A stretch of 18,423 bases of DNA from Candidatus Bipolaricaulia bacterium (GCA_046758705.1 JBHIAT010000063.1:1-18423); one strand, 5' to 3'. Shown: positions 3,815 to 16,287, numbered from the stretch's first letter. Numbers and translations: made by a program. Notes: generated by a model not told the origin, from the sequence alone.

Positions 3815-4564
3815 TTAACCCTCCGGGAAGACGGCCGGGTCGGTCAGGATGGTCCACAGGGCGCTGATCTGGGTGCCGGCTGGCATGTCGGGGCTCACCG
3901 TCACCCGGATCACCCGATACCAGGCCCCTTCCGCTGGAGCGCTGTAGATGAAACTTAAGCAGAAGCAGGTGAGCCACGTATCGGACTGGTGTTGCCCAGG
4001 CGACTCCTGGTGAGGCAAGGCCAAAAAGCCGACCTCCGCTGCCGTTGGGTTTTCAAACGCCAGCATGATCAGCCGACCCTCGCCGGGTTCCAGAAAGACG
4101 GTGTTATCCGCCACCGCCTCGCCTCGCGGCACCGGCTCACCCTTAGGCAGGGACTCCATCACCCACAGGTTGCTCACCTCAGGCTGAGGGACGTACACTT
4201 GAATTGCTTGATCCGGCAGAGGTTCCGGCAGATACTGGAAGCTGAGCTTCAGTGCTACCTTCCCGGGCGGTGGCTCCGGAACGACGGCCGTGCGGTTTAG
4301 CGCGTGGACACTCGACATGGCTGTAAAGCTGGAGATTCCCTCCTCCAGTTGGGCGACCCGCCCTTGCAAACCTTCGAGCGTGCCGGCCGTTTCCTCGATC
4401 TGCTGGCGCAGTGCGGTGACGATATCCGACAGCTCGGCGGGAGCCGGTTGAGCTGCGGGCGCGCCAGGACGCTGTAAGCCGGCGCAGCCGGCGGCCGCCA
4501 CCAACGACGTCCCGGCCACCATGACCACGAACAGCAGACGCAATCTCTTTCTGTTCCTGTTCAT
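3815..4564 (-). CDS. Lipoprotein with coiled coil and Cox11/CtaG-like CFC copper-chaperone domain
   Basis: Lipobox AAGC, a heptad segment, then LEPGEG...FENPT...P...TCFCL...VSPDMP, matching the Cox11 pattern by eye. Paralog of 4566..5288. Confidence 0.6.
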   Translation of the reverse strand: MNRNRKRLRLLFVVMVAGTSLVAAAGCAGLQRPGAPAAQPAPAELSDIVTALRQQIEETAGTLEGLQGRVAQLEEGISSFTAMSSVHALNRTAVVPEPPPGKVALKLSFQYLPEPLPDQAIQVYVPQPEVSNLWVMESLPKGEPVPRGEAVADNTVFLEPGEGRLIMLAFENPTAAEVGFLALPHQESPGQHQSDTWLTCFCLSFIYSAPAEGAWYRVIRVTVSPDMPAGTQISALWTILTDPAVFPEG

Positions 4565-4565
4565 A

Positions 4566-5288
4566 TCAGCCTCCTTGTGAGTTCAGCCGCACCACAGGCC
4601 ATACGACAATGGCCTTGGCGCCGGGCGGCGTATTGGGAGCTACACCGACCTGAATCGTGCGGTACCACGCTCCTCCGGCCGGAGCCGCAAATGGCACGGC
4701 GGCACACATACAACGAGCCCGCACCAGCGGAAGTGCGGGTTGCGGATCCAGCGTGGGCGCAACCACCAGGAAGTCCACCACTTCATCGGTAAGATTTTCG
4801 TAGACCACCTGCAACGTATAGAACTTCCCGGGCTCGACGAAGACGATGCCGTCTACCACCTCATCACCACGAGGAACAGGCTGTCCCGCCGGCACTGACA
4901 CGGTGGTGAACAGCCGCTCGGTCTCGGGCACCGGGAAATGGAATCGGAACTTCCCAGGGATTTCGTCGTTGACGTCGTCGGCGATGAACTGGACGGTCAC
5001 CATTCCAGGCGGAGGATTCGGCAGGAATTGAGCCCGACTCGTTCCCAATCGCCCGGGATCGAGCACCAACTGGCTGACAAACCCCTCCATCTCACTGACC
5101 CGGCTTTTCAATTGACCGGCGGTCTCAGCCAAGGCTGCCAGCTGTTGCTGGAGCTGTTGCAGGATCTGGGCCAACTCCTGTTCTTCCGTTGATCCATTGC
5201 TGCTATACGCAGTGGCAGCTGCCCACACCAGCAAAAACAACGATGCCCCTACAACCAACTTTCCCTTCCACAACATCCTCATACGCAT
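4566..5288 (-). CDS. Exported coiled-coil + Cox11/CtaG-like CxC protein (paralog of 3815..4564)
   Basis: ATG 5288 after GGGGGTG. Signal/anchor, Gln-rich coiled coil, then VEPGK...YENLTDE...RCMCAA...APAGGAWYRTI. Aligns with the neighbour's APAEGAWYRVI. Confidence 0.6.
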   Translation of the reverse strand: MRMRMLWKGKLVVGASLFLLVWAAATAYSSNGSTEEQELAQILQQLQQQLAALAETAGQLKSRVSEMEGFVSQLVLDPGRLGTSRAQFLPNPPPGMVTVQFIADDVNDEIPGKFRFHFPVPETERLFTTVSVPAGQPVPRGDEVVDGIVFVEPGKFYTLQVVYENLTDEVVDFLVVAPTLDPQPALPLVRARCMCAAVPFAAPAGGAWYRTIQVGVAPNTPPGAKAIVVWPVVRLNSQGG

Positions 5289-5366
5289 CGGCCACCCCCT
5301 TTGTGAAGTTTGAATCCGGTCTGTGTCAACATCAGTCCATCCGATCACCTCCTCGACACTGTAACC

Positions 5367-5385
5367 TATCCCTGGGTAGGGGATA
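5367..5385. promoter_or_regulatory. CsoR/RcnR-like operator, copy 1
   Basis: TATCCC-TGGGTAG-GGGATA palindrome with G/C tracts, 11 nt downstream of the -10 on the minus strand. Confidence 0.75.
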
Positions 5386-5396
5386 AGGATAGGATC

Positions 5397-5425
5397 ATTA
5401 TAATAATGATAATCATCTTTTGCAA
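5397..5425 (-). promoter_or_regulatory. Sigma70 promoter of the Cox11-like/ccdA operon, with a Fur-family box in the spacer
   Basis: TTGCAA (5425-5420), 17 nt, TATAAT (5402-5397). AATAATGATAATCATCTTT (5402-5420) matches 15/19 of the classical Fur box GATAATGATAATCATTATC. Confidence 0.75.
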
Positions 5426-5811
5426 ATGGGAGCCAACGAGCTTGAATTAGATGGGGCGCTGTATCTGGGGTAAATTCGGATCATGTGGTAATACGCGAAT
5501 CTGTTGCCCATGACGATGTCCCGATCGTAATCCCAGATTGCTCTCAATACGCCGGGGATCAGGGAGGAGAAGACGACCGTCGCCACGGCGATCTCCCTGA
5601 GGATACTGTGGTATATCCTGATCAACCCGTAGATCATCAGAGCAGATCCACCAATGAGCAGCAGCGCTTCATAGCGCACCAGAAACGTCAGCAGGCCGCT
5701 CCCTCCGATGCCAGCAGCGTGCCGCCGAGGAGCGATGCGATAATCGGACTGTTCGACATAACAGCATGGGCGTCGATCCTCTGAACATTGTTGATCACGT
5801 TCGTCCTGCAA
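5413..5811 (-). pseudogene. Possible frameshifted remnant of a small CC-containing membrane protein (MerT/MerC-like)
   Basis: PCCYV, then SPIIASLLGGT in another frame, then AAGIGGSGLLTFLVRYEALLLIGGSALMIYGLIRIY. No good RBS or start. Confidence 0.3.
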
Positions 5812-5812
5812 T

Positions 5813-6340
5813 CTATCCCAAAACTCCCGGGGGGAACGGCACCACCTTGCGCGCCGGCTCCGGGATGCCCCGCTCCAGCGGCTTCGTCCCTGGACCGCCC
5901 TTCGGCTCCCCGACGATGATCCGGCCGACCATCCCTAGAAACTCGTGGGGGATGCAGTAGTAGTCGTAGATCCCCTCGACCACGAACCGGTGTTCAAAGG
6001 TGGCGCCGACCTGGGTGAGCACCCCGGAGTTCCAGGGCTTCGCCCGCTCGGGGATCCTCAGCTCCTTGCCGAAGTTGTCGGGATGGTAAGCGGTTGTGCT
6101 GTGGACATCGCTCTCCAGGATCCAGCGAACCACCGTCCCCGGCTCAATCCACAGGCCGGTGGGGACGAATATGTAGTGGTTGCCGTTGGTGGTGAGCATC
6201 AGCACGTCCACCCGCCCCTGGCCGACCGCCGGTCTACCCGTTAACGACGCCAACGTCCCGCCCAGGGCGACGGCGCCGGTCATTTTGAAGAACCCCCGTC
6301 TCGTCAGATGCAATTTGGTGCTGCGTTCCAACGGAATCAC
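5813..6340 (-). CDS. Tat-exported blue copper protein (plastocyanin/halocyanin-like cupredoxin)
   Basis: Twin-arginine signal TRRGFFK; type-1 Cu ligands H(STT)...YYCIPHEFLGM. Confidence 0.9.
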   Translation of the reverse strand: MIPLERSTKLHLTRRGFFKMTGAVALGGTLASLTGRPAVGQGRVDVLMLTTNGNHYIFVPTGLWIEPGTVVRWILESDVHSTTAYHPDNFGKELRIPERAKPWNSGVLTQVGATFEHRFVVEGIYDYYCIPHEFLGMVGRIIVGEPKGGPGTKPLERGIPEPARKVVPFPPGVLG

Positions 6341-6408: not shown

Positions 6409-6448
6409 AGCCCGGTCATTCCTATCTGGCGATCGGGATGACCGGGCT
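6409..6448. repeat. Long GC-rich inverted repeat (terminator, processing or stability hairpin)
   Basis: AGCCCGGTCAT (6409-6419) pairs perfectly with ATGACCGGGCT (6438-6448), with further inner pairing. No U-tract. Confidence 0.6.
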
Positions 6449-6608: not shown

Positions 6609-7634
6609 TTAGCGTAGTGCCCCCAGCAGGCTGTTCGCCATCGCCTCCGCGTTGATGTACCTCAGGGCAAAGTAGCCGATGGGGATCGCGAACGCGATGT
6701 GCGCGATGAACGGGACGATCGGGAAGACCCGCCAGGGAAACTGGATCATCCGCATCATCGGCGGCATAGCGATCATCATCACCGCCCAGACGAAGATCCC
6801 CCAGGCGATCGCAAGTCCCCAGGACCCCTGGCCAACGAGCAGCGTGTAGGGGATGCCCAAGGAGATCCCGCCGATGAAGAAGTGCCAGACGTACCCCCGA
6901 AAGGCCGCGTGGAACAGGGAGACCCTTTCCTCCTGAAGCGTCCTCGAGTAGACCTCCTCTTCCATCATCTCCCGAAACATTGCCATCGGGATCCGGGGCA
7001 TTCCGCGCGGCTGTCCGTAGAAGCCCGGAGTGCCGTCCCCTATTGTGACCTCATCCATCGTGCGCATGATCGTCCGACGTGCTTCGCTCGGCATCTCAGA
7101 GAGAATCTCTACCTGGGTCCCGACCACCAACTTCCGTTGGTCCTTTGCCAACCTCTCTAGCCCTCGGCGCATGGCGCCGATGACCATGATCCGCTGGGCC
7201 TCGGGCATCTTTGCGATCGCTGACAGCCGCTCGGTCATCATCCTCCGCCTCTGAGCTTCGGGCATCTTGGCCAGTCTGGCCACCAGCGCCCCGATCATAT
7301 TCCGCTGGAGCTTGGGGCCGAGTCCCAAGGCGATCGCCCCGAACATGCGAGGCATGTCCATGGGAAACAGCTTGAATCGGACACCGATCAACCGGACGAT
7401 GTCCAGGGCCACCGTCCCCAGTATCCCGCCGACGGTCCCCCAGATGATGAGCGTGCATAAGGGTTCCCTAGCCAAAACCCCATAGATCGTGATCCCGGCC
7501 AGCACGATCAGGGATGGGGCCCCTACGACCTTGAACAGTTTGGGCGCCGGATAGCCCACAATCCGGTCGATGATCAGGATGCCCACCGGCGAAGCTGTAA
7601 GAACGAACGTAACCACCCACAATGGCCAGTTCAT
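6609..7634 (-). CDS. Membrane protein (341 aa) with an inserted 4 x 19-aa Met-rich helical repeat domain
   Basis: ATG 7634 with RBS AGGAGGTG and its own promoter. About 6 TM segments with His residues (WHFFIGG, AHIAF) and MMIAMPPMM. Repeats at ~7274-7047. Confidence 0.85.
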   Translation of the reverse strand: MNWPLWVVTFVLTASPVGILIIDRIVGYPAPKLFKVVGAPSLIVLAGITIYGVLAREPLCTLIIWGTVGGILGTVALDIVRLIGVRFKLFPMDMPRMFGAIALGLGPKLQRNMIGALVARLAKMPEAQRRRMMTERLSAIAKMPEAQRIMVIGAMRRGLERLAKDQRKLVVGTQVEILSEMPSEARRTIMRTMDEVTIGDGTPGFYGQPRGMPRIPMAMFREMMEEEVYSRTLQEERVSLFHAAFRGYVWHFFIGGISLGIPYTLLVGQGSWGLAIAWGIFVWAVMMIAMPPMMRMIQFPWRVFPIVPFIAHIAFAIPIGYFALRYINAEAMANSLLGALR

Positions 7635-7664
7635 AGACGGTGCACCTCCTGCCGTTTCATATCC

Positions 7665-7723
7665 CTTCCCCAGGTAGGGGATATAGGTATTAAAATTATA
7701 ACACTCCCACCTGCCGGTTTCAA
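7665..7723 (-). promoter_or_regulatory. Sigma70 promoter plus CsoR/RcnR-like operator, copy 2
   Basis: TTGAAA (7723-7718), 17 nt, TATAAT (7700-7695) with TGn. Operator TATCCCCTACCTGGGGAAG (7683-7665) lies 11 nt after the -10. Confidence 0.8.
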
Positions 7724-7737
7724 GCGGAGAGAGACCT

Positions 7738-8247
7738 TTACTCGCACTGACACTCACACAAGATCTCTTCCAGCTCCACCTTACCCGATTGTGTATCGTA
7801 GATGGCGAGACCTGCAGGCTTCCCGGCGACGTCCACGTTGCCGGGATTGACCAGGAGCGTGTCACCGACGCGCTCCTGCTTCACTCGGTGGGTATGGCCG
7901 AAGAAGACGACATCGTAGTTGCCCGTCGACGCCAGGGCGCGGGCGAAGATCGGCTTGTGAACGAAGGCGATCCGGACCCCGTTGAATGTCAGCTCTCCGA
8001 CGTCTTCATAGATGTGGATATTCTCGACGGAGTTGGCGAGGTTGAGCATCTTGAACTGATCGCCGTCGTTGTTGCCGAAGACCATGTGAAAGTTCATATT
8101 GACGGCTGTAAACTCTTCCAGCGCGCAGCAGGAGCCGATATCACCGCAGACGATCACCTCCTGGAGCCCCAACTTCTCGATGCGACGAAATACGCGCTTC
8201 AGATTGGGGAGGTGGTCGTGAATGTCCGAGATCACCGCAATTTTCAA
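7738..8247 (-). CDS. Metallophosphoesterase (YfcE/MJ0936 family)
   Basis: ISDIH, CGD, GNND, H, GHTH and NPG motifs of the calcineurin-like fold. Confidence 0.92.
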   Translation of the reverse strand: MKIAVISDIHDHLPNLKRVFRRIEKLGLQEVIVCGDIGSCCALEEFTAVNMNFHMVFGNNDGDQFKMLNLANSVENIHIYEDVGELTFNGVRIAFVHKPIFARALASTGNYDVVFFGHTHRVKQERVGDTLLVNPGNVDVAGKPAGLAIYDTQSGKVELEEILCECQCE

Positions 8248-9263
8248 CGCATTTTCACCTCCGCTTTTCCCTCGCGACTTTGGGATTTTAGCGCTTCCTG
8301 ATTGACCAGATTCGGCGGCTCCTCTCCCTTCAAGGCGGCGACCATATTCTCAGCGGCCATCACCGCCATCTTAATGCGGGTCTCCACCGAGGCGCTCCCG
8401 ATATGTGGAACCAGGACCACATGTTCCTCCAGCTTCACCAGCTCTGGATGGATCTTTGGTTCCCCCTCATAGACGTCCAAAGCTGCTCCCTTGATCTCTC
8501 CAGCCTTCAGCGCCTGAGCGAGCGCCTTCTCATCGACTACCGGACCGCGGGAGGTGTTGACCAGGATGGCATTGTTCTTCATCTTCTCAAACGCTTCCAT
8601 GTTGAACATATGTCTGGTTTTCTCAGTCAACGGGACATGGACGGTGATGAAGTCACTTCGCTCAAGCAGCTCATCGAAGCTGACATATTCAGCGTCCAGC
8701 TCCTGTTCGGCCGCTTCATTGCGCCGCTCAACATAATAGAGGATCTTCATGTCGAAGCCCCGATGACCTCGTTTAGCGACCGCGGTCCCGATACGGCCCA
8801 TCCCAATGATCCCGAGGGTTTTCCCGTAGATGTCCAGGCCGAGGTGCGGGTGCATCAGCTCCCACCCGTTGTACTTCCCGGCTCGGGTGAACCGATCGGC
8901 TTCAGGGATTCTCCTGGCAGCACTCATGAGCAGGGCAAATGCGAGATCGGCGGTCGTATCGGTAAGCACGTCAGGGGTGTTGGTTACCAGGATACCGCGC
9001 TCGGGGGCTGTATTCACATCGATGTTATCAAAACCAGCCGCAATGTTCGAGATAGCCTTCAATCTTGGACTTGCTTCCAGAATCTCGACGTCTATCCAAT
9101 CGGTGAGCAGACAGATGAGCCCATTCACATCCCGAATCTTTTCGATCAGCTCCGGCTTCGAAAGTGGAACGTCTAGCTCATTCATCTCGAAGCCGATCTC
9201 CTCGTTCTTGAGGATCTCCAACGCCTGGTTGAATATCTTCCGGGAGATATAGACCTCCTTCAT
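8244..9263 (-). CDS. gyaR: D-isomer-specific 2-hydroxyacid dehydrogenase (glyoxylate reductase / D-glycerate dehydrogenase)
   Basis: GFDNID, TNTPDVLT, GMGRIG, NTSRGPVVDE, LDVYEGEP and PHIGSA. ATG 9263 overlaps the upstream stop (ATGA). Confidence 0.88.
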   Translation of the reverse strand: MKEVYISRKIFNQALEILKNEEIGFEMNELDVPLSKPELIEKIRDVNGLICLLTDWIDVEILEASPRLKAISNIAAGFDNIDVNTAPERGILVTNTPDVLTDTTADLAFALLMSAARRIPEADRFTRAGKYNGWELMHPHLGLDIYGKTLGIIGMGRIGTAVAKRGHRGFDMKILYYVERRNEAAEQELDAEYVSFDELLERSDFITVHVPLTEKTRHMFNMEAFEKMKNNAILVNTSRGPVVDEKALAQALKAGEIKGAALDVYEGEPKIHPELVKLEEHVVLVPHIGSASVETRIKMAVMAAENMVAALKGEEPPNLVNQEALKSQSREGKAEVKMR

Positions 9264-9853
9264 CGAAGCCACACGCTCACATTTGGATTCTCATTGGCGT
9301 GACGCAACGCCGAAACGATCTGTGGGCTAGGCGCGATCGAGGAACGGCAGGCCGGTGGATCCACCTCGTGCCTCAGGCAATCCTCCAGATGGACCACCTT
9401 CGAGACGAGATCGTCCCCGACCAAATGGTAGCCAGTGCTGATGCCCATCGGCCTGACCGGTTGTGCGCTCTTCCCCTCCCAGGCGAATACCTCTCCCGTC
9501 TGGGTCACGGCGTACTTCGCCCCGATCAGGATGAAGCCGTCCCGCTTGAGCTTTCGGTATCGCTCCCTGCCCAATACATATTCTGCCAGTCGGTCGGCCT
9601 GGGCGTTTAACCGCTGCTGGTTGGAACGCCAGACCACCTGTTTCTCTCTATGTCGCCGTAAGGCGATCCAACGAATTGCGGTGAGGAACAGGGCCGTGCC
9701 GCTCAGCAGGAGCAACAGATACACCGTCCAGCTCCAGGACGAGATCTCGGGGAAGATCCAGATGGCGACGAACAGCCCGACTGCCAGAAAGCCCAACAGT
9801 CTCTGTCCGATGGCCAGCATCGGGTCCAGCCCACCTAACCACAGAGCGATCAC
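9260..9853 (-). CDS. Uncharacterised 2-TM protein with a soluble C-terminal domain
   Basis: Two N-terminal TM helices, a charged helix and an alpha/beta domain (GDDLVSKVVHLED..ALRHAN). Overlaps both neighbours by 4 nt. Confidence 0.7.
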   Translation of the reverse strand: MIALWLGGLDPMLAIGQRLLGFLAVGLFVAIWIFPEISSWSWTVYLLLLLSGTALFLTAIRWIALRRHREKQVVWRSNQQRLNAQADRLAEYVLGRERYRKLKRDGFILIGAKYAVTQTGEVFAWEGKSAQPVRPMGISTGYHLVGDDLVSKVVHLEDCLRHEVDPPACRSSIAPSPQIVSALRHANENPNVSVWLR

Positions 9854-10047
9854 CCTCCTTGGATCTGGCGGAGGATCAGCACCTCATCCTCCGCCTCTAC
9901 CTCGTCGATGCCGGCGCGCTGATAGCCGGAGGCCGTCCGCTTGAACAGGGTTTCGACCTGTTCTTGAAACGATCCCTCCAGCTTTTCCTTCGTCATCAGT
10001 TTGGTCGTATGTCCCTCGGTGTTGCTGGGACGGTAGACTTTGACCAT
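9850..10047 (-). CDS. 65-aa putative ubiquitin-like/beta-grasp protein ending in Gly-Gly
   Basis: ATG 10047 after GAGGTGG. C-terminus EDEVLILRQIQGG-stop resembles the ThiS/MoaD/Ubl terminal strand (D.v.i....GG). Confidence 0.6.
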   Translation of the reverse strand: MVKVYRPSNTEGHTTKLMTKEKLEGSFQEQVETLFKRTASGYQRAGIDEVEAEDEVLILRQIQGG

Positions 10048-10083
10048 CGAGACCACCTCTTTCTGGTTTTGCTTCAGATCAGA

Positions 10084-10560
10084 TCAGCGCCAGAACTGCC
10101 ACCAGTGCCTGCGTCTTTGCCTCTGTATTTCTGGCCTTGGACGGCTTGCGGCCATCGCCGGCTCTTTCATCCCCGACTCCATCATCGCCATCATCCCCTG
10201 GACCATCTTCTTGGCCCCCTCCGACAGGTTGGGCATCAGCGCCTGGATGAGCCCCATCTCCTTCATCCGCATCGCCTCGGGCATCTCGCCCATGAGCGCC
10301 ATGTGTGTTCCCATGAGCGTCTGACTCTTCTCCTCCGGGAATCCGGCCAGGATCTCAAGCCGGGTCTTGATCAGCTTCTTCATGTCCGCATCGGGGAGCT
10401 CACCGACGGCCATCATCATCTGCTTCATGGCCCCCTTCCGCTTCACCTCCGGCATCTCGTAGAAGATCTCGAGCCGGTCCTGCATCATCGCCTTCCGCTT
10501 CTGCTCGTTCATCTTGGCCAGCATCTCCACCATCTCCCGCATGGGGTTTTCTACCGCCAT
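10084..10560 (-). CDS. Soluble Met-rich protein of 6 x 19-aa helical repeats with a WWQFWR tail
   Basis: RBS AGGAGGTGA. 28 Met in 158 aa and no Cys. Exact 19-residue period; amphipathic C-terminal tail. Confidence 0.85.
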   Translation of the reverse strand: MAVENPMREMVEMLAKMNEQKRKAMMQDRLEIFYEMPEVKRKGAMKQMMMAVGELPDADMKKLIKTRLEILAGFPEEKSQTLMGTHMALMGEMPEAMRMKEMGLIQALMPNLSEGAKKMVQGMMAMMESGMKEPAMAASRPRPEIQRQRRRHWWQFWR

Positions 10561-10590
10561 TGAAGATCACCTCCTGATTGATTCTCCCAT

Positions 10591-11811
10591 CTACCCAAAC
10601 ATCGCCTCATCCATCGCCCGCATCAACGCCCGGCGTTCCTGTGAGGGCAGCTCAGCCATCACCTCGGTCCGGGCCTTCACCATCCGTTCCCGCCGTTCCT
10701 GATCCAGTCGGTTCAGGCCGTCGATCATCGCGCTCACCCGCGCCACCCGCGATCGCTCCGGGGCGGCGGCCATCGCGCCCATCATTCGACGCATCATCCC
10801 GTTGCGCTCGGCCTCCGGCATATCGGCCAGCAGGCCGATCATGATCCGGATCGTCGCCCGGAACTCGTTTCGCAACGCGGAGATCCGGACCGGCAGGATC
10901 AAGGCGACGCCGGCAACGACCAGCACCAGTCCGATGGCAAACCCACGCGGGTTCGTCGCAGGATGGGGAACCATGAACCTCCCCATGAACAGAGTGATAT
11001 AGCCGTAGATCAACGAGAGCGTGCCGGCCCACAGCCAGAGTTGCTTGATTACCATCTCGCCGGTCGTCTCGGCTCCCTCCTCCAGCCTGCGCTTGTAAAG
11101 CTCTCGGCCCAGCAGGATCAGGTAGGCGAGGACGATGAGGACGACGGCAACCGGGGCGCGTTCACCTTTGGGAAGCAGGTCGACGAACGGGACCCTCCCC
11201 ATAAACGCGTTCAAAAACCCGTACATCAGGATGAGCAAACCGACAAACAGCAGGGTGCCCCGAAAGACCGCGAACCCCACGTCGGTCCCGCCCTCGCCCA
11301 GGAACCGCCGGCGTCGTCCCAAGAGCATCTTGACCATCCCCCAGACCGGGATGATGGTGATGATCCCCCAGAAGGCGAGGACGAAGCCCCACCAGCTCCA
11401 CACCGGCAGCCGATACTCCGGTTGGAACATCAACATCAGCCCCAGACCGGTCAGGATCGTTCCCTTGACGTAGTTGACCCCGCCGGGCAGGATCAGATCC
11501 GGACGGAACGGCATCCCAGGTCTCAGCTCCAATCCCGGGACGTACTCCCCTTGAGTGTCCTTCAGGCCGAGCCAGGCGGCCGAAGCCCAGAAGCCGACGA
11601 GCCCGAGTAATAGCAGCGACGTCTTGGCCTCCAGTGACAGAGGCGCACGCAGGATGACGGCGATGAAGATGAACAGAGGCATGAAGATGACCCCGCCCAT
11701 GAACAGAGGTGGCTTGTAGTCGGTGTAGCGCCGGAGCCCGGCCGCCGGAAAGAGCATGATCGTCATCACCGTCGAGATCAACCCGATCCCGATGATGGGG
11801 GCGGCGCTCAT
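10591..11811 (-). CDS. ~10-TM membrane protein (406 aa) with a C-terminal 4 x 19-aa Met-rich repeat domain
   Basis: ATG 11811 with RBS AAGGAG, overlapping the upstream stop. Internal duplication GLLILMYGFLNAFMGR / GTLSLIYGYITLFMGR. Repeats at ~10830-10603. Confidence 0.85.
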   Translation of the reverse strand: MSAAPIIGIGLISTVMTIMLFPAAGLRRYTDYKPPLFMGGVIFMPLFIFIAVILRAPLSLEAKTSLLLLGLVGFWASAAWLGLKDTQGEYVPGLELRPGMPFRPDLILPGGVNYVKGTILTGLGLMLMFQPEYRLPVWSWWGFVLAFWGIITIIPVWGMVKMLLGRRRRFLGEGGTDVGFAVFRGTLLFVGLLILMYGFLNAFMGRVPFVDLLPKGERAPVAVVLIVLAYLILLGRELYKRRLEEGAETTGEMVIKQLWLWAGTLSLIYGYITLFMGRFMVPHPATNPRGFAIGLVLVVAGVALILPVRISALRNEFRATIRIMIGLLADMPEAERNGMMRRMMGAMAAAPERSRVARVSAMIDGLNRLDQERRERMVKARTEVMAELPSQERRALMRAMDEAMFG

Positions 11812-12011
11812 CGCGATCTCCTTGATTGCCGATACTTCACCACCGCTGCCAGGGTGACGGCCGCCGGCAGGGCGTAGGCGACCAAAGCCCCGCCGGCCAG
11901 CTGTCCATCCTCCAGCAGCGCGGTCATCCCCACCCACCAGCCGAGGAAGATCCCATAGACGGCGATCCAGGCGAGCAGCAGCTTTGCCACTGTCTGCCTA
12001 CTGGTTCTCAT
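11808..12011 (-). CDS. Small 2-TM membrane protein
   Basis: 67 aa with two hydrophobic helices; 4-nt overlaps with both neighbours. Confidence 0.7.
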   Translation of the reverse strand: MRTSRQTVAKLLLAWIAVYGIFLGWWVGMTALLEDGQLAGGALVAYALPAAVTLAAVVKYRQSRRSR

Positions 12012-12187
12012 GTGACAGCCCCTCCCTGCGCGCTCTCCTTAGCTTTGCTCGCAGCAGGTCCAACCGCCGCTTCCTCTTCCTGAAGTTCGGGCTCTTTTAC
12101 CCGTTCTTTCTTCCGAGGATCTTGCTCTCGCTCTTCGATGACTTCCAACGTCTCAGGGGCGAAAGGCATGCTGCAGCAGCCACACAT
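12008..12187 (-). CDS. Small protein with N-terminal CGCC motif and a charged, likely disordered tail
   Basis: RBS GGAGGGTGA before ATG 12187; MCGCCSMPF followed by E/K-rich sequence. Confidence 0.7.
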   Translation of the reverse strand: MCGCCSMPFAPETLEVIEEREQDPRKKERVKEPELQEEEAAVGPAASKAKESAQGGAVT

Positions 12188-12212
12188 GGTCAATCACCCT
12201 CCTTTCTATCTG

Positions 12213-12446
12213 CTATTCCTCCTCTGCCCGCTCAGCGGTGTAGTATGCAGAGAAGACTCGATTCTTTAAGATCCGCTCTTCATCGGTGACCTCAGCATCG
12301 AACGTCACCTCACCGGTTCCGTTCCCGTAATCGATCTCCGCCTTCACCACACCCTCGTCCTTCTCCAAGAACCGGGTGATGGTATCGGCGCACCCCTGAC
12401 AGGTCATCCCGGTGATCTTCAGCTTTGCCTTTTGTTGAGTTGTCAT
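12213..12446 (-). CDS. copZ: Heavy-metal-associated (HMA) domain chaperone, CopZ/MerP-like, cytoplasmic
   Basis: ITGMTCQGCA motif, 77 aa, no signal peptide, RBS GAGGTGA. Confidence 0.88.
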   Translation of the reverse strand: MTTQQKAKLKITGMTCQGCADTITRFLEKDEGVVKAEIDYGNGTGEVTFDAEVTDEERILKNRVFSAYYTAERAEEE

Positions 12447-12479: not shown

Positions 12480-12773
12480 TTACGGACGCCGAAACTGTCG
12501 CTTCCTCTCAGGAAGTGGTTTGATTTTAGTGCTGGATCGGGCCCGGATCTTCCAGCGCCAGCGTCTGAATCCCAGCCATCCCCCCACAGCGACGAGCACG
12601 ACCCCCAACCCGATGAGGTAGGGACTGGCAGCCGACAGGCCGGCGAGGATCGAAACTCCGCCCGTCGCCAGAATCCCCACCAGCAAGGGTATCCCCAGGC
12701 AGCAGGCCGGGAGGATCAACAGCCACAGGAATCTCCGGCTCCCGGATCGCCGGTTCGGATTGCTATGGTGCAT
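12480..12773 (-). CDS. Small membrane protein with an intramembrane CC pair (MerF/MerT-like)
   Basis: LLILPACCLGIPLL followed by a second TM. RBS AGGAGGTGA. Directly follows merA once the IS is removed. Confidence 0.6.
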   Translation of the reverse strand: MHHSNPNRRSGSRRFLWLLILPACCLGIPLLVGILATGGVSILAGLSAASPYLIGLGVVLVAVGGWLGFRRWRWKIRARSSTKIKPLPERKRQFRRP

Positions 12774-12857
12774 GGCTCACCTCCTGATTGCGCTCACGCT
12801 ACAGAAAAACACGGCAGAGGGCACCCGGATTCATCCGGGGGGTGAATGCCGCCGCTC

Positions 12858-12886
12858 TTGACAAACCTTCCCTAATCATGTATATC
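12858..12886 (+). promoter_or_regulatory. tnpB promoter (probably leaderless transcript)
   Basis: TTGACA (12858-12863), 17 nt, TATATC (12881-12886). GTG at 12893 lies at the expected +1 and has no RBS. Confidence 0.55.
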
Positions 12887-12892
12887 AGAGAT

Positions 12893-14011
12893 GTGAAAAC
12901 TTTTGAGTATCGCCTGTACCCAACCAAGAGCCAGCGTGCCTTGCTGATGGCCTGCCTCAAAGAATCCAGGAAGCTATACAACGAGATGCTGGCAATGACC
13001 AAAGTGCAGTACCGCCAGACGGGTCGCTTCCTGTTCAAATATGCACTGACCAAGGCATTTAAGGGGCGTGGACAAGCTGTGCCTGCCACAACCGTCCAAT
13101 GTCTCGCTGATCGGCTTGATAAAGCACTGCACAATTTCTTGGCTCGCAAAGAGTTAGGCCAGCCAGCAGGATTCCCACGTTTCAAACCGCCGAACCGCTG
13201 GCACTCCATCCATCTCAGACAGTGGGGCAAATATCGAGATGTCTTCTTTGACGGCAAGTATCTGAAGGTCCCTAAGAAACTGGGAGGTAAACTCAAAATC
13301 AAACTGCACCGCCCGTTTGAGGGTACCCCAAAGACCTGCCATCTTGTCCTACGCGCTGACGGCCATTGGTATGCCCTCATTCCCTGTGAGATTCCAACAC
13401 CCCCCCCAGATCCCTCTAAGCCAGAGATCGGGTTGGACATGGGGCTAAAACACTTTTTGGCCGATTCAAACGGCAACACCGTGACCGCCCCCCAATGCTT
13501 TCGCAAAAGCCAAGCCAAGCTCCGAGTCAAACAACGAACGATAAGCCGGAGACCAAAGGGCAGCAACCGCCGTCGCAAAGCGGCTAAAGAGACCGCTCAC
13601 GTGCATCTGAAGATTGCGCGGCAGCGGCGGGACTGGCTGTTTAAGGTGGCCAAGCCCTATGCTGAAGATTACAGCCGCATATTCGTCGAGGACTTGAACG
13701 TGAGCGGAATGCTCAAAAACCATCATCTGGCCAAGAGCATCTCTGACGCATCGTGGAGCATGTTCCTTGAGATCCTGGCTGCCAAGGCTGGGAGTGCTGG
13801 GCATGAGGTGATCAAGGTTCCTGCACGCTTCACGACACAGAAATGCTCGGCTTGCGGTACGCTGGTTCCCAAGTCTTTGAGCGTTCGCACGCATATTTGT
13901 CCTTTCTGCGGCTTCATCGCTGACCGCGATCATAACGCCGCGCTGAACATATTAACCGCTGGGGCGCAGCGGTCAGGCGCTAACGTCGAAGAAGAGTTCG
14001 GCGTTGCCTGA
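12893..14011 (+). CDS. tnpB: RNA-guided endonuclease TnpB
   Basis: KTFEYRLYPT N-terminus, GFPRFK, RuvC-I GLDMG, RuvC-II VEDLNV, Zn ribbon CSAC..CPFC and RuvC-III DRDHNAA. The D-E-D triad is intact. Start could alternatively be ATG 12878. Confidence 0.95.
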   Translation: MKTFEYRLYPTKSQRALLMACLKESRKLYNEMLAMTKVQYRQTGRFLFKYALTKAFKGRGQAVPATTVQCLADRLDKALHNFLARKELGQPAGFPRFKPPNRWHSIHLRQWGKYRDVFFDGKYLKVPKKLGGKLKIKLHRPFEGTPKTCHLVLRADGHWYALIPCEIPTPPPDPSKPEIGLDMGLKHFLADSNGNTVTAPQCFRKSQAKLRVKQRTISRRPKGSNRRRKAAKETAHVHLKIARQRRDWLFKVAKPYAEDYSRIFVEDLNVSGMLKNHHLAKSISDASWSMFLEILAAKAGSAGHEVIKVPARFTTQKCSACGTLVPKSLSVRTHICPFCGFIADRDHNAALNILTAGAQRSGANVEEEFGVA

Positions 14012-14064
14012 GAAGCACCCCGTTTCAACGGGGTGAGTCGTCACTCTATACAACAGCTCATCTT
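13930..14064 (+). ncRNA. TnpB omegaRNA (reRNA) overlapping the tnpB 3' end; guide = flank 14045-~14064
   Basis: Stems ACCGCTG/CAGCGGT, CAGGC..AACGTCGAA/TTCGGCGTT..GCCTG and the terminal hairpin. The location is as established for TnpB systems. The 5' end is approximate. Confidence 0.7.
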
Positions 14065-15444
14065 GGAGATATCCCGGTAGAACGCCTGAGCTGCCAGCTT
14101 GATCGCCTCGCTGAACGTCGGAAACACATGGACGGTGTCGATGATGTCATCGATCGTCAGCTTGTACTTGACCGCCAGCGCCGCCTCGTGAATCATCTCG
14201 GCGGCGACCGACGCGACGATATGCACGCCGACGACCTCGGTCGTCTGCGGATGGATCACCATCTTGACCAAGCCGCGGGTGTCCCCGACAGCCAACGCTT
14301 TGGGAACCTGGGACATCTCGACGGTCCGGCAGGCGCAGACGTTGAACCGCTCCATGAACTGCGCCTCGGTCATGCCAACGCTCGCCACCTGCGGGTTGGT
14401 GAACACGGCGTGGGGAATGCTTTGATAGTCGATCGTGTTGTGTTCCCCGGCCAATGCGTTGCGCGCCGCCACACTCCCTTCCTTAGCGGCGACTGTCTCC
14501 AAAAACGTTCTGCCGACCACATCACCTGCAGCGTAGATGTGGGGAGCAGTCGTCTGCAGCTCGTCGTTCGCCTGGACGAACCCTCGTTCGTCCAACTCGA
14601 CGCCAGTGGCCTCGAGGTTCAGTCCGTCGACGTTCGCCCGCACGCCGGTGGCGATCAGAAGCTGCTCCGCCTCGAAAGCCCGCGTCTTCCCCTCGACCTG
14701 AGCCTGGACCGTCCTGACACCGTCCGCTTCGGCGACCCTTTCGATCTGGACACCGGTGTAGAAAGAGATGCCTTCCTCCTCGAGATACTGTTGCAGCACC
14801 AAGGAGACCTCGAACTCCTCCAGAGGGAGGATGCGCGGCTCTTTCTCCAGCACAGTGACCTGGGTCCCAAAGTGGGCGTACATCTGAGCGAACTCCAGCC
14901 CCAGCGGCCCCGCCCCGACGATGATCATTGATTCAGGCTGCTTTTTGAGGCTGAGCGCCTCAACGTTGGTCAGGTAATCGACCTGATCGATGCCGTCAAA
15001 CGGGATGACGTTCGTCGACCCGCCGGTGGCGATCAGGATTCGCTCACCCCGCAACCGTTGGCCGTCGACCTCAACCTCGTTCTCGGAGACGAATCGACCT
15101 CGTCTCTCATAGAGCGTGGTCTGAGATAGATAGTCCAAAACATCGATGTAGTTGGACTTTTGGAGCGTCTCGACGAGCGCGTCCTTCTGTGTGATGGCCG
15201 TATTGAAATCAAAGTCGGCCTTCCGGCCACGGATCGCGTCGAAGTGGTTGCGTCCCGGGTAGTAGAGTTCGTTCCCAACCTCGAGCAGATGCTTGCTAGG
15301 GACGCAGCCGACGTTGACACAGGTGCCGCCGATCGGCAGGCCGGCGTTGACCATGGCCGTCTTGGCGTTGAGATCGTTGGCTCTGGTGGCCGCGGCGAAC
15401 GCCGCCGCCCCGCCGCCGATGATGACTAGGTCATACTTCTCCAT
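14041..15444 (-). CDS. merA: Mercuric reductase (core only, no NmerA domain)
   Basis: GGGAAA FAD motif, GGTCVNVGCVPSK redox centre, HVFPT, C-terminal SCCIE; RBS AAGGAGG. Confidence 0.9.
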   Translation of the reverse strand: MEKYDLVIIGGGAAAFAAATRANDLNAKTAMVNAGLPIGGTCVNVGCVPSKHLLEVGNELYYPGRNHFDAIRGRKADFDFNTAITQKDALVETLQKSNYIDVLDYLSQTTLYERRGRFVSENEVEVDGQRLRGERILIATGGSTNVIPFDGIDQVDYLTNVEALSLKKQPESMIIVGAGPLGLEFAQMYAHFGTQVTVLEKEPRILPLEEFEVSLVLQQYLEEEGISFYTGVQIERVAEADGVRTVQAQVEGKTRAFEAEQLLIATGVRANVDGLNLEATGVELDERGFVQANDELQTTAPHIYAAGDVVGRTFLETVAAKEGSVAARNALAGEHNTIDYQSIPHAVFTNPQVASVGMTEAQFMERFNVCACRTVEMSQVPKALAVGDTRGLVKMVIHPQTTEVVGVHIVASVAAEMIHEAALAVKYKLTIDDIIDTVHVFPTFSEAIKLAAQAFYRDISKMSCCIE

Positions 15445-15505
15445 TGAACAACCTCCTTGAAAGTTTGAGCAGAGCCACTGACCTGCAATTTTCCATCTTA
15501 AATCC

Positions 15506-15564
15506 CATCCCCCGGTAGGGGATCTTTCAACCCAAAGTATACCCTATCTAGAAAGCCTTGTCAA
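15506..15564 (-). promoter_or_regulatory. merA promoter plus CsoR/RcnR-like operator, copy 3
   Basis: TTGACA (15564-15559), 17 nt, TATACT (15541-15536). Operator GATCCCCTACCGGGGGATG (15524-15506) lies 11 nt after the -10. Confidence 0.8.
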
Positions 15565-15642: not shown

Positions 15643-15699
15643 TTGACAGCGGGAAATCTTTGGGGTATAATGTGCATAAGCACATGTGCCTATGCACAT
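15643..15699 (+). promoter_or_regulatory. Consensus promoter and 30-bp double-palindromic operator upstream of the DUF134 gene
   Basis: TTGACA (15643-15648), 17 nt, TATAAT (15666-15671). ATGTGCATAAGCACATGTGCCTATGCACAT (15670-15699) is a palindrome with one mismatched pair. Confidence 0.8.
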
Positions 15700-15714: not shown

Positions 15715-16065
15715 ATGCCGAGAATGAAGATGAGATACTGCGGCTACATGCCTAGGGCCATGGGATTTCGACCCATGCCCATGGGTCGAAGGGAACACCG
15801 GGAGCGTCGGAGCGAACATGAACAAGAGCAGCAGACTTCCGAGACGATCGAGCTGGGGATGGACGAGTTGGAGGCGATGCGGCTGGTCGACTATTTGGGG
15901 GAGGATCAAACCCAAGCGGGAGAGAAGATGGGCATCTCCCGGGGGACGGTCCAACGGCTTTTGTACTCGGGAAGAAGCAAAGTGGTTGAGGCCCTGCTTG
16001 AGGGCAAACCGATCAAGATCCAAACGGGCGAACATATCGAGATCGTGAACGATATTCACACATAA
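15715..16065 (+). CDS. DUF134 family HTH DNA-binding protein
   Basis: MPR N-terminus; DELEAMRLVDYLGEDQTQAGEKMGISRGTVQRLLYSGRSKVVEALLEGK; RBS GAGGTG. Confidence 0.88.
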   Translation: MPRMKMRYCGYMPRAMGFRPMPMGRREHRERRSEHEQEQQTSETIELGMDELEAMRLVDYLGEDQTQAGEKMGISRGTVQRLLYSGRSKVVEALLEGKPIKIQTGEHIEIVNDIHT

Positions 16066-16086
16066 TGAAGGAGGGAGGTGAGTGCG

Positions 16087-16287
16087 ATGTGGTGCTATCC
16101 CGCTGCAGGGCGCTACGGTTTGGGCAGTCGCCGGGGAGCAGCCTATGGCTACCCCGGCTGCTGGTATGGCCCTTGGGCTTGGAGATCTCCAACTGTGGAA
16201 GAGGAACGCGAGTGGTTGGAGGGATACAAAGAGGAGTTGGAAGTGGAGCTCAAAGAGCTTGAGAAAAGACTTGAAACACTAAAGTAG
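16087..16287 (+). CDS. DUF5320-like small protein (Gly/Tyr-rich N-terminus, C-terminal coiled coil)
   Basis: RBS GGAGGTGA before ATG 16087; EEEREWLEGYKEELEVELKELEKRLETLK; adjacent to DUF134. Confidence 0.65.
   Translation: MWCYPAAGRYGLGSRRGAAYGYPGCWYGPWAWRSPTVEEEREWLEGYKEELEVELKELEKRLETLK

Follow-up and report, generated by a model that had tools for sequence, protein, structure and literature searches.

Hg(II) prefers thiolates, and the Mer transporters act through cysteine pairs. To our knowledge, this applies to all the known Mer transporters. Cu(I)/Ag(I) proteins typically have methionine and histidine sites, and the classical Met-rich sites for these ions are periplasmic. Here we analyzed a stretch of 18,423 nucleotides from Candidatus Bipolaricaulia bacterium (GCA_046758705.1, JBHIAT010000063.1:1-18423), which we call the window. 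Between positions 6609 and 11811 it encodes three proteins with a Met-rich domain. P0001 (6609..7634; all coordinates refer to the minus strand unless the plus strand is named) is a protein of 341 amino acids (aa) with six transmembrane (TM) segments. P0002 (10591..11811) is a polytopic membrane protein of 406 aa. P0003 (10084..10560) is a soluble protein of 158 aa. We firmly conclude that their genes form a conserved and mobile membrane module, whose proteins share a helical solenoid that is at most a borderline relative of DUF3106 (PF11304). The module is linked to the mercury resistance (mer) genes by neighborhood, by co-occurrence in genomes, and by a shared operator.

The closest described systems differ from this module in several aspects. 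Like MerT, MerC, MerF, MerE, MerH, and MerP, these are membrane or small proteins encoded beside merA, and P0001 has the operator of merA. However, they have no conserved cysteine, are much larger, and carry a solenoid domain. At E <= 0.1, none of the three matched PF02411 (MerT), PF03203 (MerC), or the NCBIfam models of Mer transporters. With CusF/CusB, CopC/PcoC, SilE/PcoE, and the Mets motifs of Ctr1, they share a strong Met enrichment, partly with His. The Met-rich sites of those proteins are periplasmic or extracellular and their folds differ. The gene company here is that of mercury and not of copper. The CusF, CopC, and SilE/PcoE families also gave no Pfam or NCBIfam match at E <= 0.1. 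An initial annotation made from the sequence could not assign the proteins to a Cop, Cus, or Mer family, and in Pfam and NCBIfam they belong to none of these. The module is not described in the passages available from the literature on mer operons that include hypothetical, membrane, or Met-rich genes. Those of PMC8261052 mention no such genes, and its supplements may list neighboring genes.

The three proteins share a domain of 19-residue repeats. It has four units in P0001 (residues 121-196, 7047..7274), four in P0002 (residues 328-403, 10603..10830), and six in P0003 (residues 14-127, 10180..10521). Each unit is a single helix and follows the motif L-x-x-(L/M)-P-E-x-x-R-x-x-M. The initial annotation described an exact period of 19 residues without gaps, and our comparisons agree with it. 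The repeat peptides that it quoted are found as written in the three translations. Ungapped BLASTP alignments relate P0001 to P0002 (40% identity over 89 aa, E 3e-16), P0001 to P0003 (35% over 81 aa, E 1e-9), and P0002 to P0003 (27% over 77 aa, E 4e-6). In all three domains, the lag of 19 gives the highest BLOSUM62 self-score, and the lag of 38 is second. None of 2000 shuffles equaled the lag-19 self-score, whether taken at lag 19 itself or over all the lags of 5 to 49. The translation of P0003 also confirms its 28 Met in 158 aa (17.7%) and its WWQFWR tail, with HWWQFWR at the C-terminus. The Met content of the repeat domains is 10.8% in P0001 and 14.1% in P0002. On the helices, the Met residues present the spacings MxxM and MxxxM.

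The position of the domain differs among the proteins. In P0001 it was described as lying within a loop of the six-TM protein, and we placed it between TM3 and TM4. In P0002 it is indeed C-terminal; however, the analysis of TM segments and loops, with inspection, gives about nine TM segments and not the ten previously estimated. The same analysis shows Arg/Lys-rich loops flanking the repeat domain in P0001 and P0002. The small-protein relatives anchored at the N-terminus have RRPRP after TM2. P0003 presents no signal peptide, and the first helix of its model begins at residue 6. Together with the positive-inside rule, these three features suggest that the repeat domain is cytoplasmic. The prediction of a complex of P0002, P0001, and residues 1-132 of P0003 had a score of 0.20 (mark, 0.32).

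P0001 has 97 database relatives and P0002 at least 132 (E <= 1e-3). The listed relatives have no precomputed Pfam domain except P0027 (PF01972), and nearly all are unnamed or hypothetical. They belong to Chloroflexi, Actinobacteria, Thaumarchaeota with related archaea, and one cultured Bacillota species; Terrihalobacillus insolitus is a cultured carrier of the P0002 family. Most P0002 homologs have a two-TM segment fused at the N-terminus, and relatives of 405-440 aa without this segment also exist. In the homologs of 505-545 aa, the extra length is at the N-terminus, and the C-terminal end coincides with that of P0002. In the window, a 67-aa two-TM open reading frame (ORF; 11808..12011), whose stop overlaps the P0002 start (ATGA), matches the N-terminal extension fused in these relatives (profile A1, E 3.1e-10). 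We also considered P0003 as a split-off C-terminus of P0002, given that it lies in the same frame behind a TAG codon. This candidate was rejected: read-through meets a second stop, and the long homologs are extended only at the N-terminus.

The small protein has its own family. A word-indexed search with P0003 gave no match. Since a profile search did find relatives, this blank result is a limit of the index. Profile A3, built from the small proteins of related loci, matched 408 representative clusters at E <= 1e-3, of which 132 reached E <= 1e-10. Some relatives carry an N-terminal pair of TM helices. Others (P0220, P0229, P0236, and P0270) have a fused C-terminal SPW-repeat membrane domain, and there are some tandem duplications. 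Trp-rich tails (WWxFW) recur in P0003, L006:2722-3195, and L014:8307-9182. The small-protein profile also matches long proteins, P0319 and P0328, with LP-x-x-x-R/Q repeats of about 38 residues (E about 1e-13 to 1e-14). By their sequence, they could be solenoids that arose by convergence or could be distantly related to the 19-residue repeat.

We examined the conservation of the module by scanning one genome per species with the P0002 profile and searching the ORFs of each locus by profile. This yielded 25 loci, two of which (L027 and L028) are contigs of the same assembly. They come from Thaumarchaeota, Heimdallarchaeota, Methanobacteriota, Acidimicrobiia, Anaerolineae, Nitrospira, and Trueperaceae. 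A small repeat protein is present in 20 loci and lies at 700 bp or less from the P0002 homolog in 17. A P0001 homolog is present in 14. The three genes are found together in 12 of the 25 loci, so their association is not limited to this genome. These counts are lower bounds because nine of the loci are under 8 kb. The L013 genome has a P0001 homolog about 15 kb away on the same contig, and the L023 genome has none. Among 11 metagenome loci centered on P0001, most of them short, four have a P0002 homolog and three a small protein. In addition, seven loci have, immediately after the P0002 homolog, a conserved ORF of about 60 aa with one TM segment (such as L023:4803-4988 and L014:6096-6281). It has no counterpart in the window. 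Among 184 genomes of the window's phylum, the P0002 family is confined to this one, which indicates horizontal acquisition.

The mercury link is observed at several levels. In the window, merA (14041..15444) encodes a mercury(II) reductase of 467 aa (TIGR02053, 548.1 bits; cut-off 454.45). The product lacks the N-terminal HMA domain and has a C-terminal Cys pair at its end (..MSCCIE). A MerA above the TIGR02053 cut-off was found within 10 kb in 10 of the 25 loci, and all ten end in SCC. Four further flavoprotein reductases in the protein cluster containing MerA are not MerA. In L034, one of the P0001-centered loci, a match of 742 bits to a MerA profile, which we built from 11 MerA sequences, is directly beside the P0001 homolog. 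The other recurrent neighbors in the 25 loci are ArsR-type regulators (9 loci), thioredoxin-like (9), patatin (7), DsbD-TM-like (6), extracytoplasmic function (ECF) sigma factor (6), cyclopropane-fatty-acid synthase (4), HxlR (3), MerB (3), and PrkA (3).

The genomes show the same association. We sampled 401 genomes from the class holding L010. The P0002 family is present in five and MerA in 40 (one of the latter, G581, is flagged as unpublished and is outside the five module genomes). All five module genomes have MerA, in comparison with 35 of the other 396, and in four of them both are on the same contig within about 1-8 kb. The chance of drawing MerA five times in five is about 8e-6, a figure that overstates the association because related genomes are not independent. 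MerT is absent from the five genomes and from the window's own genome, and MerC above cut-off is absent from the five. The initial annotation suggested looking for the co-occurrence of the three genes with merA or copZ, and noted that Met-rich motifs bind Cu(I)/Ag(I). The link with merA was found, but copZ is not recurrent in the 25 loci. The recurrent metal link is mercury (MerA, MerB, and ArsR-type regulators), not copper or silver.

The third level is regulatory. A palindromic operator, ATCCCCTACCTGGGGAAGGGAT (7661..7682), is located 12 nt downstream of the -10 box of a promoter-like site preceding P0001. This site is TTGAAA-17-TATAAT (7695..7723), with 11 of 12 matches and a TG extension. 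A second copy of the operator, with one mismatch (15502..15523), is located 12 nt downstream of the -10 box of the promoter-like site of merA, TTGACA-17-TATACT (15536..15564). Allowing up to three mismatches, the 22-nt palindrome ATCCCCTACCNGGGGNAGGGAT has only two matches in the 3.7-Mb assembly, both in the window. Shuffles of the window yielded no operator match. In operational terms, the module would count as a member of the mer operon, given the operator common to merA and P0001 only, the MerA within 10 kb in 10 of the 25 loci, and the MerA of all five module genomes. The homologs of P0001 in L018 and L019 have ATCCC...GGGAT palindromes 43-87 nt upstream. The three genes were previously described as lying downstream of the same operator. 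This holds directly for P0001. In contrast, P0002 and P0003 are only far downstream of the merA copy, at 3.7 kb, with a tnpB gene on the opposite strand in between. By the sequence, their expression could come from transcription from merA across the insertion sequence (IS) or from an unrecognized promoter. Elsewhere in the window, a third promoter (5397-5426), followed by a degenerate copy of the operator (both within 5362-5426), is ahead of two paralogous genes (3815-5348).

The repeat domain was called unnamed in the initial annotation. It has no characterized function, although it is not wholly unnamed. DUF3106 is the best Pfam match for the three copies of the domain, with scores at or just under the gathering threshold (24.3 bits). 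The isolated P0001 domain reaches 25.8 bits. The whole P0001 (22.8), the P0002 domain (15.0), and P0003 (16.6) are below it. Among relatives, DUF3106 matches at E <= 0.01 were found in 29 of 87 for P0001 and 32 of 82 for the small protein. A repeated helical motif of the L-P-E-x-x-R type is common to DUF3106 and the domain. We therefore read the domain, on sequence grounds, as a probable distant and borderline relative of DUF3106, which is itself of unknown function. The full-text search on DUF3106 listed only two unrelated papers, on Helitron annotation. Canonical DUF3106 proteins are secreted proteins of proteobacteria, whereas the domain here is predicted to be cytoplasmic and is fused to membrane proteins.

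The AlphaFold2 models are consistent with a helical solenoid. The P0003 model has a predicted local distance difference test (pLDDT) of 89.2 and a predicted template modeling score (pTM) of 0.79, with seven helices within residues 6-130 and a low-confidence tail. The P0001 model has a pLDDT of 96.6 and a pTM of 0.91. Its helices between TM3 and TM4 span residues 106-123, 126-141, 145-160, 164-180, and 183-198. Foldseek found no match to either model in the PDB at E <= 0.001, and its top match was the cytoplasmic domain of MgtE (E 0.17). In the VIA search, P0003 was best matched by 4ks9_B (Z 8.7, root-mean-square deviation (rmsd) 3.3 over 113 residues). The P0001 domain was best matched by the MIF4G domain of 6ozu_B (Z 7.6, rmsd 2.4 over 74 residues). 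Such Z values are in the noise range for helical repeats, and nearly all the P0001 rows span residues 114-201, so that its TM part is barely sampled. Profile searches of PDB sequences with alignments A1, A2, and A4 gave nothing below E 0.03. The ESM Atlas gave no usable match for P0002 or for residues 201-341 of P0001.

A comparison with the MgtE_N and FliG repeats had also been suggested. The resemblance is that of a cytoplasmic all-helical superhelix joined to a membrane machine. Only weak matches were obtained: MgtE_N (PF03448) on the P0001 domain, with 15.0 bits and E 0.037 (threshold 25.9); FliG_M, with E 0.8; and the soluble part of MgtE, 2oux_B, in the VIA search (Z 6.1, rmsd 3.6 over 94 residues). 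At E <= 0.01, MgtE_N matched one of 82 small-protein relatives. These scores are in the common range of helical repeats, there is no Mg-related context, and they indicate no specific kinship. The models suggest a generic alpha-solenoid without a specific solved relative. It also differs from the HEAT, ARM, and MIF4G solenoids, which have two or three helices in units of 34-47 residues, while here each unit has 19 residues and one helix.

We analyzed the conservation of Met, His, and Cys in the three families. In 87 sequences of the P0001 family, the residues D78, R81, D93, M94, P95, H251, M286, M287, M290, M294, and H312 are invariant. According to the helix positions in the model and the charges of the loops, they would sit in the cytoplasmic half of the helix bundle. 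In the small-protein family, with 17-50% identity to P0003, Met is the majority residue in columns 7, 10, 25, 45, 48, and 83 and is near half in columns 36, 102, and 124. The median Met content of 82 relatives is 9.9%, with values up to 19%. The median and the Met-majority columns support, at the sequence level, that the enrichment is a family trait and not the result of drift. On average, Met makes up 15.7% of the core-like columns and 7.1% of the surface-like ones. The Arg of the repeat is present in 78-91% of the sequences in repeats 1-3 and 5, in 57% in repeat 6, and in 39% in repeat 4. No Cys is conserved: its highest column frequency is 0.15 in P0002, 0.05 in P0001, and 0.18 in the small-protein family.

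The rest of the window contains further mer-type genes. Downstream of merA, an IS605-family tnpB (OrfB_IS605 and Cas12f1-like TNB; 12788..14011, plus strand) separates it from the downstream mer-type genes. It is present in the contigs of the three DNA runs that cover the region, where no IS-free joint was seen. Next is a 97-aa membrane protein (12480..12773) whose first TM segment holds a vicinal Cys pair (PACCLG). It matched no Mer family, and its sequence suggests a possible thiol-type Hg(II) carrier. It is followed by a 77-aa metallochaperone with an HMA domain (GMTCQGC; 12213..12446) and a 61-aa protein of the mer cluster that starts with MCGCC (12008..12193) and matched no Mer family. 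Between P0003 and P0001 (7738-9853) are genes for a 197-aa protein, a 2-hydroxyacid dehydrogenase, and a metallophosphoesterase, which are apparently unrelated. PADLOC models matched no family in P0001, P0002, P0003, or the 197-aa neighbor.

Beyond P0001 there is a cupredoxin with a twin-arginine translocation (TAT) signal (5813-6340). Between both genes, an 18-bp inverted repeat (6409-6448; 89% complementary, 4-nt loop) may be a terminator or a regulatory hairpin. The two paralogous genes at 3815-5348 encode proteins with a weak LIC11469/Lsa20-like C-terminal domain, and a cytochrome c gene follows them. At the start of the window, a gene for a DUF3105 protein with an N-terminal C2H2-type zinc finger (1-636) runs off the edge. 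Divergent from merA are genes for a DUF134 helix-turn-helix protein and a DUF5320 protein (15715-16284, plus strand). Ahead of them are a TTGACA-17-TATAAT promoter and a palindrome of 30 nt, ATGTGCATAAGCACATGTGCCTATGCACAT (15670-15699), which differs from the operator. DUF302, OsmC, and DsrE genes are found farther on.

Considering these results, we tentatively favor, at somewhat short of an even chance, that the module is a mer-linked accessory for handling soft metals through thioether and imidazole groups. On the cytoplasmic side of the membrane, it would offer a soft metal a cysteine-free Met/His route. Because of the gene company, Hg(II) would be the likeliest metal, with Cu(I) or Ag(I) as further possibilities. 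P0001 would provide the membrane metal site through the cluster of invariant Met, His, and Asp in the inner half of its helix bundle. The Met-rich solenoids of P0001, P0002, and the free P0003 would act as docking or relay surfaces, over which the metal could be exchanged between the membrane proteins and the MerA/HMA machinery of the cytoplasm. Here, the topology, the binding of metal, the formation of a complex, and the transport direction are all inferred.

Several points weigh against this soft-metal accessory. Its chemistry departs from the known preferences: Hg(II) favors thiolates, yet Cys pairs are absent from these families, and the domain is predicted to be cytoplasmic and not periplasmic like the classical Met-rich Cu(I)/Ag(I) sites. 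The window already has possible Hg(II) carriers in the Cys-pair membrane protein and the HMA chaperone. Most of the Met-majority columns otherwise hold hydrophobic residues, so many Met may simply belong to the core. Neither an operator copy nor a promoter-like site of their own precedes P0002 and P0003. Among the 25 loci, 15 are without MerA in the available DNA, although many of these contigs are short. The comparison of MerA across genomes counts related ones, and in Acidimicrobiia the module is also beside patatin, cyclopropane-fatty-acid synthase, ECF sigma factor, and PrkA.

These last neighbors lead to the strongest alternative, which we consider unlikely. The proteins might be a metal-independent scaffold between proteins, or a membrane-stress module for envelope or lipid homeostasis, co-selected with the mer genes in stress islands. 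The Met-rich solenoids would then be flexible hydrophobic docking surfaces, as is the Met-rich M domain of SRP54. The generic HEAT/ARM/MIF4G-like fold is typical of protein-binding scaffolds, and the repeats all carry a P-E cap and a nearly invariant Arg. The mostly hydrophobic nature of the Met-majority columns also agrees with it. So do the lipid- and stress-type company in Acidimicrobiia and the various membrane tethers of the small protein (N-terminal TM pair, C-terminal SPW-repeat domain, or Trp-rich tail). Nevertheless, a scaffold leaves three observations unexplained: the invariant Met/His cluster inside the P0001 bundle, the operator common only to merA and P0001, and the presence of MerA in all the module genomes against a minority of the others.

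A system specific for copper or silver is quite improbable in our estimation. In this reading, P0001 and P0002 would transport Cu(I) or Ag(I) with P0003 as a Met-based chaperone, and the mer link would reflect only the clustering of metal-resistance genes. The Met/His sites fit such a system, and the cupredoxin is encoded after P0001. Moreover, the operator is a C-tract/G-tract palindrome that may resemble CsoR-type operators, and the genome has CsoR-family (PF02583) genes: three full-length matches and a 25-residue fragment at a contig edge. However, all of them are on other contigs and the operator is absent near them. CsoR was rejected as a local regulator on account of the other contigs; the CsoR paralogs and the divergent DUF134 protein are candidates for binding the operator. 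Furthermore, none of CopA, CusA, CopZ, and multicopper oxidase recurs in the 25 loci, unlike MerA, MerB, and the ArsR-type regulators, and the cupredoxin falls in no recurrent neighbor cluster. The predicted cytoplasmic location is also unusual for Met-based Cu sites. Finally, a sacrificial sink, in which membrane Met scavenges oxidants under Hg or Cu stress and is recycled by methionine sulfoxide reductases (Msr), is very improbable: the high Met content of P0003 and its family, the enrichment extending to surface-like columns, and the recurrent thioredoxin-like and DsbD-like genes agree with it, but no Msr gene is among the recurrent neighbors, and a sink needs neither position-specific invariant Met/His in a TM bundle nor a precisely conserved 19-residue architecture.

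A more specific form of the soft-metal accessory is possible, although doubtful. The module may be a new class of cysteine-free transporter or relay for mercury as a soft metal, which would replace MerT/MerC in Chloroflexi, Acidimicrobiia, Thaumarchaeota, and other MerA lineages without a known Hg(II) importer. P0001, lined with Met and His, P0002 as a large partner, and P0003 as a cytoplasmic carrier would dock via their homologous solenoids. Many MerA genomes outside Proteobacteria and Firmicutes have no recognizable Hg(II) transporter, and the module is a candidate for this missing function. The cultured carrier Terrihalobacillus insolitus makes the question testable at the bench. If true, this role would extend the chemistry of metal trafficking on the cytoplasmic side from thiolates to thioethers. 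The module also places the DUF3106-like repeat in a functional context for the first time, together with two families of membrane proteins for which there is neither a Pfam family nor a solved relative.

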